DNA from: Escherichia coli
GTDB taxonomy: Bacteria; Pseudomonadota; Gammaproteobacteria; Enterobacterales; Enterobacteriaceae
Assembly: GCF_003334405.1 (NCBI RefSeq)
Contig: NZ_QOWM01000002.1
Reading direction: 5' to 3' (one strand)
Length of the DNA stretch: 64,000 nt
The position numbers and the translations under genes were made by a program. Below, piece by piece: positions 3,730-50,166 of this stretch. A model generated the notes under the pieces. That model searched no databases. It saw only the letters and a program-made list of their open reading frames with translations, and was not told where the DNA came from. Each line of letters begins with the position of its first letter. Position 1 is the stretch's first letter.

Positions 3730-4566
3730 GTGGACGTAAGACAGAGCATCCACAGTGCGCACGCAAAAACGCTGGATACCCAAGGGCTGCGCAATGAATT
3801 TTTGGTTGAAAAGGTATTTGTCGCCGATGAGTACACCATGGTTTACAGCCACATTGACCGAATTATTGTTGGCGGCATTATGCCGATAACTAAAACGGTT
3901 TCCGTTGGCGGGGAAGTTGGTAAACAACTCGGCGTAAGCTATTTCCTTGAACGTCGCGAGTTAGGTGTTATCAATATTGGCGGTGCCGGTACGATTACTG
4001 TCGATGGCCAATGCTATGAAATCGGTCACCGCGACGCCCTGTATGTTGGTAAAGGTGCAAAAGAAGTTGTCTTTGCCAGTATTGATACCGGCACTCCGGC
4101 GAAGTTTTATTACAATTGCGCACCCGCGCATACGACGTATCCCACCAAAAAAGTCACACCGGACGAAGTATCTCCAGTCACGTTAGGCGATAACCTCACC
4201 AGTAACCGTCGCACGATTAACAAATATTTTGTCCCGGATGTACTGGAAACCTGCCAATTGAGTATGGGGCTGACGGAGCTGGCTCCGGGTAACTTGTGGA
4301 ACACCATGCCGTGTCACACCCACGAGCGCCGGATGGAAGTTTATTTCTATTTCAATATGGATGATGACGCCTGCGTTTTCCACATGATGGGGCAGCCGCA
4401 AGAAACGCGTCATATTGTGATGCATAACGAGCAGGCGGTGATCTCCCCGAGCTGGTCGATCCATTCCGGTGTCGGAACCAAAGCTTATACCTTTATCTGG
4501 GGCATGGTCGGTGAAAACCAGGTCTTTGATGATATGGACCATGTGGCCGTTAAAGATTTGCGCTAG
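3730..4566 (+). CDS. kduI: 4-deoxy-L-threo-5-hexosulose-uronate ketol-isomerase (5-keto-4-deoxyuronate isomerase)
   Basis: 278 aa, GTG start 3730 preceded by GGAGG; full-length match to KduI cupin family. Confidence 0.93.
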
Positions 4567-4595: not shown

Positions 4596-5357
4596 ATGAT
4601 TTTAAGTGCATTTTCTCTCGAAGGTAAAGTTGCGGTCGTCACTGGTTGTGATACTGGACTGGGTCAGGGGATGGCGTTGGGGCTGGCGCAAGCGGGCTGT
4701 GACATTGTTGGCATTAACATCGTTGAACCGACTGAAACCATCGAGCAGGTCACAGCGCTGGGGCGTCGTTTTTTAAGCCTGACCGCCGATCTGCGAAAGA
4801 TTGATGGTATTCCAGCACTGCTGGATCGCGCGGTAGCGGAGTTTGGTCATATTGATATCCTGGTGAATAACGCCGGATTGATTCGCCGCGAAGATGCTCT
4901 CGAGTTCAGCGAAAAGGACTGGGACGATGTCATGAACCTGAATATCAAGAGCGTATTCTTCATGTCTCAGGCAGCGGCGAAACACTTTATCGCGCAAGGC
5001 AATGGCGGCAAGATTATCAATATCGCGTCAATGCTCTCCTTCCAGGGCGGGATCCGTGTGCCTTCTTATACCGCATCAAAAAGCGGCGTGATGGGTGTGA
5101 CGCGATTGATGGCGAACGAATGGGCTAAACACAACATTAATGTTAATGCGATAGCCCCGGGTTACATGGCGACCAACAATACTCAACAACTACGGGCAGA
5201 TGAACAACGTAGCGCGGAAATTCTCGACCGCATTCCAGCTGGTCGTTGGGGACTGCCGAGTGACCTGATGGGGCCGATAGTGTTCCTTGCCTCCAGCGCT
5301 TCAGATTATGTGAATGGTTATACCATTGCCGTGGATGGCGGTTGGCTGGCGCGTTAA
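4596..5357 (+). CDS. kduD: 2-dehydro-3-deoxy-D-gluconate 5-dehydrogenase (SDR family)
   Basis: 253 aa, Rossmann motif TGCDTGLGQG, SDR catalytic YxxxK (YTASK); 29 bp after kduI, so likely co-transcribed. Confidence 0.93.
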   Translation: MILSAFSLEGKVAVVTGCDTGLGQGMALGLAQAGCDIVGINIVEPTETIEQVTALGRRFLSLTADLRKIDGIPALLDRAVAEFGHIDILVNNAGLIRREDALEFSEKDWDDVMNLNIKSVFFMSQAAAKHFIAQGNGGKIINIASMLSFQGGIRVPSYTASKSGVMGVTRLMANEWAKHNINVNAIAPGYMATNNTQQLRADEQRSAEILDRIPAGRWGLPSDLMGPIVFLASSASDYVNGYTIAVDGGWLAR

Positions 5358-5379
5358 TTCATTCTTCTTACTTTTATGA

Positions 5380-5404
5380 CCCTGCCGCATGGCAGGGTTT
5401 TTTA
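5380..5404 (+). terminator. Rho-independent terminator after kduD
   Basis: Stem CCCTGCC/GGCAGGG with loop GCAT followed by a 7-T run. Confidence 0.7.
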
Positions 5405-5671
5405 TACCTGTAGATCATCATAATCCATATCATGGTTATGAAATAATCCATATTAATTATCAATTAATGAACTTTATGAATTTTATCTGCTGTAAAATTA
5501 GGTGGTTAATAATAATCTCAATAATTCAACTTAATTTGAAAATTGGAATATCCATCACATAACGACATGTCGCAGCAATTTAATCCATATTTATGCTGTT
5601 TCCGACCTGACACCTGCGTGAGTTGTTCACGTATTTTTTCACTATGTCTTACTCTCTGCTGGCAGGAAAAA

Positions 5672-7090
5672 ATGGTTACTATCAATACGGAATCTGCTTT
5701 AACGCCACGTTCTTTGCGGGATACGCGGCGTATGAATATGTTTGTTTCGGTAGCTGCTGCGGTCGCAGGATTGTTATTTGGTCTTGATATCGGCGTAATC
5801 GCCGGAGCGTTGCCGTTCATTACCGATCACTTTGTGCTGACCAGTCGTTTGCAGGAATGGGTGGTTAGTAGCATGATGCTCGGTGCAGCAATTGGTGCGC
5901 TGTTTAATGGTTGGCTGTCGTTCCGCCTGGGGCGTAAATACAGCCTGATGGCGGGGGCCATCCTGTTTGTACTCGGTTCTATAGGGTCCGCTTTTGCGAC
6001 CAGCGTAGAGATGTTAATCGCCGCTCGTGTGGTGCTGGGCATTGCTGTCGGGATCGCGTCTTACACCGCTCCTCTGTATCTTTCTGAAATGGCAAGTGAA
6101 AACGTTCGCGGTAAGATGATCAGTATGTACCAGTTGATGGTCACACTCGGCATCGTGCTGGCGTTTTTATCCGATACAGCGTTCAGTTATAGCGGTAACT
6201 GGCGCGCAATGTTGGGGGTTCTTGCTTTACCAGCAGTTCTGCTGATTATTCTGGTAGTCTTCCTGCCAAATAGCCCGCGCTGGCTGGCGGAAAAGGGGCG
6301 TCATATTGAGGCGGAAGAAGTATTGCGTATGCTGCGCGATACGTCGGAAAAAGCGCGAGAAGAACTCAACGAAATTCGTGAAAGCCTGAAGTTAAAACAG
6401 GGCGGTTGGGCACTGTTTAAGATCAACCGTAACGTCCGTCGTGCTGTGTTTCTCGGTATGTTGTTGCAGGCGATGCAGCAGTTTACCGGTATGAACATCA
6501 TCATGTACTACGCGCCGCGTATCTTCAAAATGGCGGGCTTTACGACCACAGAACAACAGATGATTGCGACTCTGGTCGTAGGGCTGACCTTTATGTTCGC
6601 CACCTTTATTGCGGTGTTTACGGTAGATAAAGCAGGGCGTAAACCGGCTCTGAAAATTGGTTTCAGCGTGATGGCGTTAGGCACTCTGGTGCTGGGCTAT
6701 TGCCTGATGCAGTTTGATAACGGTACGGCTTCCAGTGGCTTGTCCTGGCTCTCTGTTGGCATGACGATGATGTGTATTGCCGGTTATGCGATGAGCGCCG
6801 CGCCAGTGGTGTGGATCCTGTGCTCTGAAATTCAGCCGCTGAAATGCCGCGATTTCGGTATTACCTGTTCGACCACCACGAACTGGGTGTCGAATATGAT
6901 TATCGGCGCGACCTTCCTGACACTGCTTGATAGCATTGGCGCTGCCGGTACGTTCTGGCTCTACACTGCGCTGAACATTGCGTTTGTGGGCATTACTTTC
7001 TGGCTCATTCCGGAAACCAAAAATGTCACGCTGGAACATATCGAACGCAAACTGATGGCAGGCGAGAAGTTGAGAAATATCGGCGTCTGA
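5672..7090 (+). CDS. araE: Arabinose:H+ symporter (MFS sugar porter)
   Basis: 472 aa from ATG 5672 ([13 protein letters not shown]...); the track ORF starts 43 codons upstream at TTG 5543, which I take as spurious. MFS sugar-transporter signature. Confidence 0.93.
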
Positions 7091-8833: not shown

Positions 8834-8954
8834 TAGCGCTCTCTCGCAATCCGGTAATCCATATCATTTTTGCATAGACTCGACATAAATCGATATTTTT
8901 TATTCTTTTTATGATGTGGCGTAATCATAAAAAAGCACTTATCTGGAGTTTGTT

Positions 8955-28969: not shown

Positions 28970-31858
28970 ATGCCCCGCAGCACCTGGTTCAAAGCATTAT
29001 TGTTGTTAGTTGCCCTTTGGGCACCCTTAAGTCAGGCAGAAACGGGATGGCAGCCGATTCAGGAAACCATCCGTAAAAGTGATAAAGATAACCGCCAGTA
29101 TCAGGCTATACGTCTGGATAACGGTATGGTGGTCTTGCTGGTTTCTGATCCGCAGGCAGTTAAATCGCTCTCGGCGCTGGTGGTGCCCGTTGGGTCGCTG
29201 GAAGATCCCGAGGCGTACCAGGGGCTGGCACATTACCTTGAACATATGAGTCTGATGGGGTCGAAAAAGTACCCGCAGGCTGACAGTCTGGCCGAATATC
29301 TCAAAATGCACGGCGGTAGTCACAATGCCAGCACTGCGCCGTATCGCACGGCTTTCTATCTGGAAGTTGAGAACGACGCCTTGCCTGGTGCGGTAGACCG
29401 CCTGGCCGATGCTATTGCTGAACCTTTGCTCGACAAGAAATATGCCGAACGTGAGCGTAATGCGGTGAACGCTGAATTAACCATGGCGCGTACGCGTGAC
29501 GGGATGCGCATGGCACAGGTCAGCGCAGAAACCATTAACCCGGCACACCCCGGTTCAAAGTTTTCTGGTGGTAACCTCGAAACTTTAAGCGACAAACCTG
29601 GTAATCCGGTGCAGCAGGCGCTGAAAGATTTCCACGAGAAGTACTATTCCGCCAATTTGATGAAGGCGGTTATTTACAGTAATAAACCGCTGCCGGAGTT
29701 GGCAAAAATGGCGGCGGACACCTTTGGTCGCGTGCCGAACAAAGAGAGCAAAAAACCGGAAATCACCGTGCCGGTAGTCACCGACGCGCAAAAGGGCATT
29801 ATCATTCATTACGTCCCTGCGCTGCCGCGTAAAGTGTTGCGCGTTGAGTTTCGCATCGATAACAACTCAGCGAAGTTCCGTAGTAAAACCGATGAATTGA
29901 TTACCTATCTGATTGGCAATCGCAGCCCAGGTACACTTTCTGACTGGCTGCAAAAGCAGGGATTAGTTGAGGGCATTAGCGCCAACTCCGATCCTATCGT
30001 CAACGGCAACAGCGGCGTATTAGCGATCTCTGCGTCTTTAACCGATAAAGGCCTGGCTAATCGCGATCAGGTTGTGGCGGCAATTTTTAGCTATCTCAAT
30101 CTGTTACGTGAAAAAGGCATTGATAAACAATACTTCGATGAACTGGCGAATGTGCTGGATATCGACTTCCGTTATCCGTCGATCACCCGTGATATGGATT
30201 ACGTCGAATGGCTGGCAGATACCATGATTCGCGTTCCTGTTGAGCATACGCTGGATGCAGTCAATATTGCCGATCGGTACGATGCTAAAGCAGTAAAGGA
30301 ACGTCTGGCGATGATGGCGCCGCAGAATGCGCGTATCTGGTATATCAGCCCGAAAGAGCCGCACAACAAAACGGCTTACTTTGTCGATGCGCCGTATCAG
30401 GTCGATAAAATCAGCGCACAAACTTTCGCCGACTGGCAGAAAAAAGCCGCCGACATTGCGCTCTCTTTGCCAGAGCTTAACCCTTATATTCCTGATGATT
30501 TCTCGCTGATTAAGTCAGAGAAGAAATACGACCATCCAGAGCTGATTGTTGATGAGTCGAATCTGCGCGTGGTGTATGCGCCAAGCCGTTATTTTGCCAG
30601 CGAGCCCAAAGCTGATGTCAGCCTGATTTTGCGTAATCCGAAAGCCATGGACAGCGCCCGCAATCAGGTGATGTTTGCGCTCAATGATTATCTCGCAGGG
30701 CTGGCGCTTGATCAGTTAAGCAACCAGGCGTCGGTTGGTGGCATAAGTTTTTCCACCAACGCTAACAACGGCCTTATGGTTAATGCTAATGGTTACACCC
30801 AGCGTCTGCCGCAGCTGTTCCAGGCATTGCTCGAGGGGTACTTTAGCTATACCGCTACGGAAGATCAGCTTGAGCAGGCGAAGTCCTGGTATAACCAGAT
30901 GATGGATTCCGCAGAAAAGGGTAAAGCGTTTGAGCAGGCGATTATGCCCGCGCAGATGCTCTCGCAAGTGCCGTACTTCTCGCGAGATGAACGGCGTAAA
31001 ATTTTGCCCTCCATTACGTTGAAAGAGGTGCTGGCCTATCGCGACGCCTTAAAATCAGGGGCTCGACCAGAGTTTATGGTTATCGGCAACATGACCGAGG
31101 CCCAGGCAACAACGCTGGCACGCGATGTGCAAAAACAGTTGGGCGCTGATGGTTCAGAGTGGTGTCGAAACAAAGATGTAGTGGTCGATAAAAAACAATC
31201 CGTCATCTTTGAAAAAGCCGGTAACAGCACCGACTCCGCACTGGCAGCGGTATTTGTACCGACTGGCTACGATGAATACACCAGCTCAGCCTATAGCTCT
31301 CTGTTGGGGCAGATCGTACAGCCGTGGTTCTACAATCAGTTGCGTACCGAAGAACAATTGGGCTATGCCGTGTTTGCGTTTCCAATGAGCGTGGGGCGTC
31401 AGTGGGGCATGGGCTTCCTTTTGCAAAGCAATGATAAACAGCCTTCATTCTTGTGGGAGCGTTACAAGGCGTTTTTCCCAACCGCAGAGGCAAAATTGCG
31501 AGCGATGAAGCCAGATGAGTTTGCGCAAATCCAGCAGGCGGTAATTACCCAGATGCTGCAGGCACCGCAAACGCTCGGCGAAGAAGCATCGAAGTTAAGT
31601 AAAGATTTCGATCGCGGCAATATGCGCTTCGATTCGCGTGATAAAATCGTGGCCCAGATAAAACTGCTGACGCCGCAAAAACTTGCTGATTTCTTCCATC
31701 AGGCGGTGGTCGAGCCGCAAGGCATGGCTATTCTGTCGCAGATTTCCGGCAGCCAGAACGGGAAAGCCGAATATGTACACCCTGAAGGCTGGAAAGTGTG
31801 GGAGAACGTCAGCGCGTTGCAGCAAACAATGCCCCTGATGAGTGAAAAGAATGAGTGA
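28970..31858 (+). CDS. ptrA: Protease III (pitrilysin), periplasmic M16 zinc metalloprotease
   Basis: 962 aa; signal peptide; inverted zinc motif HYLEHM. Confidence 0.96.
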   Translation: MPRSTWFKALLLLVALWAPLSQAETGWQPIQETIRKSDKDNRQYQAIRLDNGMVVLLVSDPQAVKSLSALVVPVGSLEDPEAYQGLAHYLEHMSLMGSKKYPQADSLAEYLKMHGGSHNASTAPYRTAFYLEVENDALPGAVDRLADAIAEPLLDKKYAERERNAVNAELTMARTRDGMRMAQVSAETINPAHPGSKFSGGNLETLSDKPGNPVQQALKDFHEKYYSANLMKAVIYSNKPLPELAKMAADTFGRVPNKESKKPEITVPVVTDAQKGIIIHYVPALPRKVLRVEFRIDNNSAKFRSKTDELITYLIGNRSPGTLSDWLQKQGLVEGISANSDPIVNGNSGVLAISASLTDKGLANRDQVVAAIFSYLNLLREKGIDKQYFDELANVLDIDFRYPSITRDMDYVEWLADTMIRVPVEHTLDAVNIADRYDAKAVKERLAMMAPQNARIWYISPKEPHNKTAYFVDAPYQVDKISAQTFADWQKKAADIALSLPELNPYIPDDFSLIKSEKKYDHPELIVDESNLRVVYAPSRYFASEPKADVSLILRNPKAMDSARNQVMFALNDYLAGLALDQLSNQASVGGISFSTNANNGLMVNANGYTQRLPQLFQALLEGYFSYTATEDQLEQAKSWYNQMMDSAEKGKAFEQAIMPAQMLSQVPYFSRDERRKILPSITLKEVLAYRDALKSGARPEFMVIGNMTEAQATTLARDVQKQLGADGSEWCRNKDVVVDKKQSVIFEKAGNSTDSALAAVFVPTGYDEYTSSAYSSLLGQIVQPWFYNQLRTEEQLGYAVFAFPMSVGRQWGMGFLLQSNDKQPSFLWERYKAFFPTAEAKLRAMKPDEFAQIQQAVITQMLQAPQTLGEEASKLSKDFDRGNMRFDSRDKIVAQIKLLTPQKLADFFHQAVVEPQGMAILSQISGSQNGKAEYVHPEGWKVWENVSALQQTMPLMSEKNE

Positions 31859-48747: not shown

Positions 48748-50166
48748 TCACACTTCCTCTATAAATTCAGGTTCAGTTTGCGGGTAGAAATAACGGTACT
48801 GATAATGAATCTGTGCGCGGGCTTCTTCCGGGCTGTTAAATTCCCCTACGCCATACCAACCGAACAGCGCAGCTCCTGCGACGGTCGTTTCGGCGTCGTC
48901 GAGAACTTTTACCGGAATATCAAGCATATTGGCTTTAATCTGATTCCACAATGTGTTGCGACTTCCTCCACCGACTAACAATAATTCAGAGGCCTTAAAG
49001 TGCCCGATTTTTTCCAGCATCTGTAGATTGCGCTGTAATTGCGCAGTTAACCCTTCCAGCGCCGCGCGATAGAAATGCCCCCGCGTGGTATTAAGCGTCA
49101 CTCCTTGCCAGCCAGCGTTCTGACACGACAATAAATCACACTGCATTTTTACGCCATCCGCGCCAGGCGCGATCAGACGAGCTTCTTCAATCAACATTTG
49201 CCAGGGTGTTTCAGCCGTCCAGAACAGTTTTCTCACCCATTCCAGCACGCCGGATGCCAGCCATTGCATACCTGGGTTATACAACCCTGCCTGGCTATCC
49301 AGTTCGCAGGTGGAACCGGCGTACTGACTTAACAGCGAAGTATCAACCTGGGCGCTGCGAACCATTAAAATTTCCCATGTACCGGAAGAGAGCACGGGTT
49401 CATTTTGTTCAGCACCAGCGCCAAAAAGGGCGAACTGGGTATCGTGACCTGCGGAAATCACCGGTATGCCAACGGGTAAGCCGAGCATTGCTGCGGCGCT
49501 GTTCTGTAGCGTACCAATCTGTTCACCCGCTTCCACCAGACGAGGGAAGAGTCGGCGTGGAATACCGGTGGCTTGTAAAATTTGCGGACTGAAATCGCGT
49601 TGCTGGATATCCAGCATCTGGCTGGTTCCGGCCATCGTGATATCAGTAGTGAATTCGCCGGTTAAACGGTGGTTAATCAGCGACGAAATAAAGAGCCAGG
49701 CGTGCGCGCGTTCCAGCAGTTGTGGATGATTTTCTTTCAACCACACCAACTTATATAACGTATTGAAACTAAAGGCTCCGACGCCAGAAATAGCCTGCAA
49801 CCGCTGTGCGGAGATTAACCGTTCAATATTGTCCATAACCGCTGCTGTTCGCGGACATTTCCAGCTAATAATCGGATAGAGCAGATTGCCTTGCTTATCT
49901 ACCAGAGCGCCATCCACACCAAAGGTGGTGACGGCGATACCGCGGATGTGGCATTCAGTCAGTTCACTATTGATTTGCCGACAGCAATCAGCAAAGCGTT
50001 GCAAAATGGCGTCTAAAGACCACTGGTGCCAGGTGTTGTTTTCCATCGCGATATCGCTGGCATTAGGCGTTGAGGCGCGGGCAACAATTTTGCCCTGCCG
50101 ATTAACCGCGATGGCCCTGACATTGGTCGCGCCACAGTCGAGTACCAGGATAACTTCTTGTTTCAT
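48748..50166 (-). CDS. fucK: L-fuculokinase (FGGY kinase)
   Basis: 472 aa from the ATG giving [18 protein letters not shown]...; the track ORF is 10 codons longer. Confidence 0.92.

Follow-up and report, generated by a model that had tools for sequence, protein, structure and literature searches.

Two conserved TCCATA boxes upstream of the Escherichia coli araE promoter are probable auxiliary AraC half-sites

We report that the control region of araE in Escherichia coli contains two TCCATA boxes upstream of the known AraC binding site, and that there is strong evidence of purifying selection acting both on these boxes and on their distances to the core promoter. Together with the promoter-proximal box they form a threefold repeat of the decamer TAATCCATAT. 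Comparison with characterized AraC sites indicates that, the known half-site I1 aside, the upstream copies are probably auxiliary AraC half-sites, with AraC as their likely ligand. AraC looping at araBAD is a textbook example of bacterial action at a distance, and to our knowledge araE has been described with only the promoter-proximal I1-I2 site and a CRP site.

All coordinates refer to the window, i.e., the whole 64-kb stretch of E. coli DNA that was analyzed. The genes and boundaries of the locus are as follows.

3730-4566, plus strand: kduI (family match; RefSeq annotation at the identical locus)
4596-5357, plus strand: kduD (family match; RefSeq annotation at the identical locus)
5358-5671: kduD-araE intergenic region of the E. 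coli chromosome (314 bp, 32% GC)
5378-5405, plus strand: intrinsic terminator of kduD (hairpin 5378-5399 followed by a T run, from a terminator scan), the upstream edge of the araE control region
5672-7090, plus strand: araE, arabinose:H+ symporter of 472 aa (TIGR00879 sugar porter, 496.6 bits; RefSeq AraE at the identical locus)
Downstream of araE: ygeA, then lysR (minus strand) and lysA

Of 5426 complete E. coli genomes, 5424 contain this intergenic region, and the hairpin and T run at its upstream edge are also kept in other genera that have kduD upstream. An earlier reading of this DNA from the sequence alone described the control region as AT-rich, which is borne out by a GC content that falls to 19-22% over 5400-5550. 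No structured RNA was found by Rfam above E = 0.35 over 5300-5750, nor were inverted repeats found within the intergenic region 5358-5671.

The exact decamer occurs three times on the plus strand of the intergenic region, at 5421-5430 (copy 1), 5444-5453 (copy 2) and 5581-5590 (copy 3). The sequence-only reading had the correct number of copies and the correct position of the first, and placed the other two (5445-5454 and 5580-5589) one base off each. Copies 1 and 2 have 11 nt in common (ATAATCCATAT), and copies 2 and 3 are identical at 13 of 14 nt. The whole window contains five exact occurrences versus 0.09 expected from dinucleotide shuffles. Under a stricter null, where the 314-bp intergenic region alone is shuffled with dinucleotide composition preserved, any 10-mer reaches three or more copies in only 3 of 5000 trials. 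The threefold repeat is thereby confirmed as real and beyond chance. The opposite view, namely that chance or low sequence complexity in an AT-rich region produced the repeat and that only copy 3 is meaningful, could appeal to the very low GC content and to the fact that the bare hexamer TCCATA is not enriched across the window (28 occurrences versus 23.6 expected); the shuffles and the conservation data presented below leave this view with next to no probability. Since TCCATA lacks window-wide enrichment, the repeat signal is local to the kduD-araE region.

The other two exact occurrences in the window were considered as parts of the same system and set aside, one belonging to an unrelated conserved block and the other lying inside an ORF. 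The former, at 8855-8864, lies between lysR and lysA, 22 bp past the start codon of lysR, and has the 13-mer TAATCCATATCAT (8855-8867) in common with copy 1. It sits in a longer block, TCCATATCATTTTTGCATAGA, conserved in Escherichia, Citrobacter and Superficieibacter, which is probably the LysR/lysA control region, and the AraC-box match there consequently looks coincidental. The latter, at 30192-30201 on the minus strand, falls inside a 962-aa ORF (28970-31858) and no sign of function was found for it.

The already-known part of the system is copy 3, which forms the A-box of I1, the AraC half-site next to the promoter. The elements of the core promoter are listed below, with positions relative to the start site discussed further on.

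5544-5559, plus strand: CRP site TGGAA-TATCCA-TCACA, centered about -93.5
5573-5589, plus strand: AraC half-site I1, CAGCAATTTAATCCATA, about -72 to -56, carrying copy 3 as its A-box
5594-5610, plus strand: AraC half-site I2, TGCTGTTTCCGACCTGA, about -51 to -35, starting 21 bp after I1
5632-5637, plus strand: probable -10 hexamer TATTTT (GTAnTTT block conserved)

The I1 site conforms to xAGCxxxxxxxTCCATA, the AraC I1 pattern cited in PMC11983282, with CAGC at its start as the B-box, and both AGC and TCCATAT are conserved in all genera compared. I2 overlaps the -35 hexamer CTGACA (5607-5612), contains an invariant CCTGAC across genera, and agrees with the araBAD I2 (TAGCGGATCCTACCTGA) at 11 of 17 positions when counted by eye. 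The CRP site is likewise invariant in all genera (TCCATCACA). As a control we used the araBAD control regions of K-12 and five other genera: the distance from TCACA of the CRP site to TCCA of I1 is 29 bp in 77 of 78 araE sequences and in all six araBAD regions, and the distance from I1 to the ATG is 86-90 bp at araE (in genera whose tblastn match begins at the start codon) versus 87-91 bp at araB. The araE and araBAD promoters superimpose, the CRP-I1 distance being the same and the distance from I1 to the start codon nearly equal, and superposition on pBAD would place the araE start site at approximately 5645.

Two further features of the core promoter deserve mention. The spacer of the CRP site holds a fourth same-strand TCCAT (5551-5555, as TCCATC), 33 bp upstream of the I1 box, and the spacer motif T[AG]TCCA (5549-5555) is invariant across all genera; a spacer of this kind is lacking from the CRP site of araBAD. 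This conservation is not explained by CRP alone, and an overlapping weak AraC A-box is one possibility. In addition, the terminator scan flagged a hairpin and T run (TGCGTGAGTTGTTCACGTA TTTTTT) at 5615-5639, overlapping the probable -10 hexamer upstream of the inferred start, and a small palindrome occurs at the same promoter position in several other genera, for example TAAGGGATCCCTTA in Citrobacter.

Published chromatin immunoprecipitation data bear on the core site. The araE ChIP-qPCR primer used for AraC by the Wade laboratory, CGCAGCAATTTAATCCAT, starts within I1, and the published amplicon corresponds to 5571-5667, which covers copy 3 and not copies 1 and 2. The ChIP paper lists araE with the AraC targets assayed in the absence of arabinose and names ydeN alone as arabinose-dependent. 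This listing of araE is as expected of pre-bound, looped AraC, with the reservation that the amplicon cannot resolve distal sites. The supplement of PMC3738151 gives ChIP values of the untagged control only. The sequence-only reading had suggested three AraC binding positions: for copy 3 there is independent evidence, and for copies 1 and 2 the suggestion is plausible by inference, because of their conservation, orientation, fixed spacing and score against a position weight matrix (PWM). Judged by the test that the sequence-only reading itself proposed, namely AraC footprints located elsewhere, these two copies would seem misassigned. Copies 1 and 2 are absent from every AraC site set found in a literature search that did not include the original araE footprinting study, and a search likewise lacking that footprint and the genome-wide AraC ChIP papers found no direct binding data for 5413-5452. 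Literature searches on araE footprints, looping, IHF and the literal sequences, with the central papers lying outside the search, returned nothing relevant; one match on IHF, PMC10989795, concerns another operon.

The two upstream copies define the following sites.

5413-5429, plus strand: putative distal auxiliary half-site, O2-like, GATCATCATAATCCATA, containing copy 1 (A at position 2, TCCATA at positions 12-17)
5436-5452, plus strand: putative proximal auxiliary half-site, TTATGAAATAATCCATA, containing copy 2 (A-box only, after an A-rich run)

TCCATA of copy 1 starts 160 bp upstream of TCCATA of I1, about -221 from the inferred start site, and copy 2 follows copy 1 at 23 bp and precedes TCCATA of I1 by 137 bp. 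Both are on the same strand as I1 and more than 100 bp upstream of it, with the CRP site (5544-5559) in between, which is the layout of araO2.

The conservation of these sites was assessed at the araE loci of 80 species representatives, of which 79 were analyzable, with the upstream regions anchored on the CRP/I1 block. At 57 of the 79 loci and in the window (58 sequences), the I1 strand carries a pair of TCCAT boxes with a spacing of exactly 23 bp. In these Enterobacteriaceae representatives TCCATA is invariant at both upstream positions and the flanks and the AT-rich spacer are randomized; each position of TCCATA(T) carries about 2 bits of information, compared with 0-0.6 bits for the flanks and the greater part of the spacer. 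At the position of copy 1, TCCATAT shows no variation among 56 distinct orthologues, where the A at -10 is conserved in part (1.1 bits). The distance from the distal box to I1 is 160-162 bp in 46 sequences, including Escherichia, Salmonella, Citrobacter, Enterobacter, Kosakonia, Leclercia, Lelliottia, Siccibacter, Pseudescherichia and others, and 150-152 bp in 12 sequences from Klebsiella, Raoultella, Kluyvera and Phytobacter. In one additional Raoultella genome the distances are 162/129, i.e., there is a 10-bp insertion between the boxes. A box is kept 150-154 bp from I1 in Franconibacter, Buttiauxella, Mangrovibacter and Cedecea, four genera that do not have kduD upstream, and Erwinia, Mixta, Tatumella, Rosenbergiella and Pluralibacter keep the CRP site and I1 with no upstream box. 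Retention of a box in genera without kduD upstream means that the element belongs to araE and not to the 3' end of kduD.

The same constraint is visible within the species. Of 5426 E. coli genomes, 5404 (99.6%) carry the 42-mer with both boxes (5412-5453) unchanged, versus only 2614 and 3486 (48-64%) for the next two 42-mers in the spacer. The invariance of both upstream boxes across many genera amid randomized flanks, and their depletion of polymorphism within E. coli, refute the chance reading for practical purposes.

Some E. coli carry a natural 7-bp deletion (TATTAAT, 5454-5460) directly after copy 2. A span of 307 bp instead of 314 bp is seen in 5 of the 60 E. coli matches listed, including an O145 strain, and the deletion was confirmed by alignment in one genome, E. 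coli STEC2017-197. It recreates TCCATAT and changes the distal distances from 160/137 to 153/130, that is, into the other spacing class, and it therefore constitutes a ready-made natural spacing variant.

As a separate observation, a Mixta sp. has a tandem array of at least 10 copies of GCAGTCC about 100-180 bp upstream of its araE I1 box, in place of the distal boxes.

We next consider how closely the upstream copies resemble AraC half-sites. All three copies contain TCCATA followed by T, which is invariant in orthologues. With respect to the B-box, copy 1 has GATC, where only the A at position 2 agrees, as is also the case in O2, and copy 2 has TTAT, which does not agree. The signature common to I1 and O2 is xAxxxxxxxxxTCCATA (PMC11983282), and the logo of the distal site, A(-10)T(-9)....attaTCCATAT, corresponds to it; the Klebsiella distal site CAATTGTCCATAT is almost the same as araO2, CCAATTGTCCATAT. 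Copies 1 and 2 also have the orientation of I1, as does araO2. A PWM trained only on orthologues of araBAD I1 and O2 and on the araF site, when applied to the approximately 128,000 positions of the window, ranks the copy 3 site (5573-5590) first with 20.9 bits, copy 1 third with 12.8 bits and copy 2 62nd with 5.9 bits, the weaker score of copy 2 being due to its lack of a B-box. As a positive control, araO2 was compared in six genera, where TGTCCATAT does not vary and its distance to I1 stays at 211-212 bp, and the araO1 A-boxes were found 74 and 53 bp from I1, the 74-bp box being undetected in Buttiauxella. Judged by these sequence properties, copies 3 and 1 would be counted among AraC half-sites and copy 2 in part. 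The second-ranked PWM match, at 49821-49838 (GTTCAATATTGTCCATAA, 13.9 bits), is inside a 482-aa minus-strand ORF and is probably due to chance.

Alternatively, copies 1 and 2 could serve a factor other than AraC, such as a different regulator, a nucleoid protein complex or a structural DNA element, with TCCATA being a coincidence. Only 6-7 bp are invariant, the AGC B-box that provides much of the specificity of an AraC half-site is missing from both copies, the conserved IHF-like spacer element described below suggests that proteins besides AraC and CRP probably act here, and the near-identical 13-mer in the unrelated lysR-lysA block demonstrates that the word can arise elsewhere. Nevertheless, the invariant core is that of the AraC A-box together with the T after it (TCCATAT in I1, O2 and the distal site), the orientation of the boxes matches that of I1, and the elements are found only beside an AraC-activated promoter and move with it. 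Furthermore, araO2 is a proven AraC half-site that also has no AGC box, and copy 1 is among the top three of about 128,000 positions for an independently trained PWM. We therefore consider another ligand quite improbable and retain AraC as the likely one.

Whether the upstream boxes act together with I1 depends on the DNA between them. The length of the spacer is fixed within each class (85-87 or 75-77 bp) though its sequence is not conserved. The distal distances fall at 160-162 or 150-154 bp and nowhere between these ranges, and the observed indels are of 7, 9-10 and 10 bp. By our own arithmetic, the distances 160/137 and 152/129 and the 211 bp of araBAD have no common phase at 10.5 or 11.1 bp per turn. 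Within the AT-rich spacer one element is conserved, along with a smaller TTAT at 5483-5486:

5496-5508, plus strand: IHF-consensus-like element AATTAGGTGGTTA, matching WATCARNNNNTTR with one mismatch

A match to WATCARNNNNTTR with at most one mismatch is present 88 bp upstream of TCCATA of I1 (87 bp in Salmonella) in most of the 160-162 bp class, namely 39 of 46 sequences. In the 150-152 bp class (Klebsiella/Kluyvera) the figure is only 1 of 12. The conserved columns are the specified positions of the consensus, except for a variable C that is usually conserved in WATCAA. The element might tentatively be regarded as a candidate bending site midway in the loop that would ease formation of a 140-160-bp loop. 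The spacer was also considered as the location of a promoter. The one weak match, TTAACC-18-TAAAAT at 5509-5480 on the minus strand, was rejected because the terminal T of its -10 hexamer is not conserved and no gene lies in that direction.

We judge it fairly probable that the three repeats are AraC A-boxes pointing the same way and that copies 1 and 2 constitute a bipartite distal operator for an araO2-like loop with I1. Activation by AraC bound to I1-I2 together with CRP is established for AraC promoters in general; loop formation, AraC bound at the upstream boxes and repression at araE are what we infer in addition. In the presence of arabinose, one AraC dimer on I1 and the adjacent I2 would activate RNA polymerase, helped by CRP at about -93.5. 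In its absence, an AraC dimer would bridge I1 and one of the half-sites of the distal operator some 140-160 bp upstream, looping out the AT-rich spacer and the CRP site. Such a loop would keep AraC off I2, and basal expression would therefore be low, yet it would leave AraC poised at the promoter. Arabinose would move the dimer to I1-I2, a second dimer might then occupy the distal pair of boxes spaced by 23 bp, as at araO1, and the position-conserved IHF-like element may bend the spacer and make the short loop easier to form. Several observations speak against the loop model: copy 2 has no B-box at all and scores only 5.9 bits, the boxes are 23 bp apart versus 21 bp in I1-I2 and O1L-O1R, the helical phasing is ambiguous and some E. 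coli lineages tolerate a 7-bp deletion, and the IHF-like element is without the usual C of WATCAA and is missing where the spacing is of the shorter class. The more specific proposal, that araE is controlled by a shorter AraC loop (137-162 bp) with a bipartite distal operator and an IHF-type bend, conserved in most Enterobacteriaceae, is one that we regard as somewhat less likely than not. Early fusion work by Kolodrubetz and Schleif in 1981 is said to have shown no AraC repression of araE in the absence of arabinose. If correct, this argues against a repressive loop and not against binding, and the lac-fusion result would favor a poising or reservoir role over repression.

Another explanation is that copies 1 and 2 bind AraC as a self-contained full site, where one dimer occupies direct-repeat half-sites as at araO1 with no loop to I1, and such a site could hold AraC in reserve locally, assist activation from upstream or block read-through from kduD. 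The 23-bp spacing is invariant in all 58 sequences that have the pair, which suggests one protein complex on both boxes at once; araO1 is a comparable pair upstream of CRP at araBAD with A-boxes 21 bp apart; and the pair is located directly 3' of the kduD terminator. However, a self-contained site would not need a fixed distance to I1 across a randomized spacer, and several genera keep the distal box only, yet at the same distance from I1. Moreover, the difference between 23 and 21 bp rotates the boxes by about 70 degrees from the register expected for a dimer bound as on I1-I2, and the persistence of the element where kduD is not upstream makes a barrier to kduD read-through unlikely. On balance we regard a self-contained site as an unlikely explanation, and the looped arrangement with I1 is the one that we compare with known systems below.

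An auxiliary AraC operator at araE is a testable extension of a paradigm system and not a new principle. If true, a conserved O2-like distal operator at araE would amount to a second natural AraC loop of different length and layout, and as such a ready-made test of the light-switch model. It could explain the presence of AraC at araE without arabinose, and it would mean that looping is general in the core AraC regulon and not peculiar to the divergent araC-araBAD region. The loop would also set the basal level of AraE, which determines all-or-none induction, and would in this respect be relevant to arabinose-inducible expression systems. If the upstream sites have already been documented, our result is merely their confirmation by comparative genomics.

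Comparison with other AraC-regulated promoters begins with the canonical I1-I2 activator site of araBAD, araE and araFGH, to which copy 3 belongs as the I1 A-box. Copies 1 and 2, at about -195 to -230, differ in being too far away for an I2-type contact with RNA polymerase. The araFGH operon was ruled out as a case of the same layout. Its upstream region in K-12 (4375-4410 of the compared sequence) contains instead an I1-like site on the opposite strand, CAGCAGATTAATCCATA, followed by AGATTAGC, which is the same I1-I2 junction as in araBAD, and the word TAATCCATA recurs there because of this inverted site. At araJ no comparable distal box was seen by eye in the short upstream region.

The araE pair resembles araO1 (O1L/O1R) in consisting of same-orientation half-sites with degenerate B-boxes upstream of CRP, and the context of O1R, GAAAAGTCCACA, resembles the consensus of the araE proximal site, GAAAAATCCATA. 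The araO1 boxes are 21 bp apart, lie 53 and 74 bp from I1, and overlap the araC promoter, which they autoregulate; unlike them, the araE boxes are 23 bp apart and 137 and 160 bp from I1, with no promoter there to regulate.

Short loops assisted by architectural proteins are also known, including the gal operon with HU and upstream activator regions bent by IHF. The putative araE loop is similar in being shorter than 170 bp and in having a position-conserved motif like that of a bending protein roughly midway, and it differs in that its IHF site is a consensus match without the conserved C and is missing from the Klebsiella/Kluyvera class.

Of the known systems, the araO2-araI1 loop of araBAD comes closest. 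The predicted araE loop would differ from it in length (137-162 bp versus 211-212 bp), in having two distal boxes 23 bp apart instead of one, and in containing no divergent araC promoter, with a conserved IHF-like element in the spacer; at araE, in contrast to araO2-I1, distal binding and repression are predictions. The similarities concern both the site and its placement. As in araO2-I1, the distal half-site is oriented as I1 and consists of TCCATAT and an A at position 2 with no AGC box, it is located upstream of a CRP site 29 bp from I1 in an identical I1/I2/-35 geometry, and its position relative to I1 is conserved across genera.
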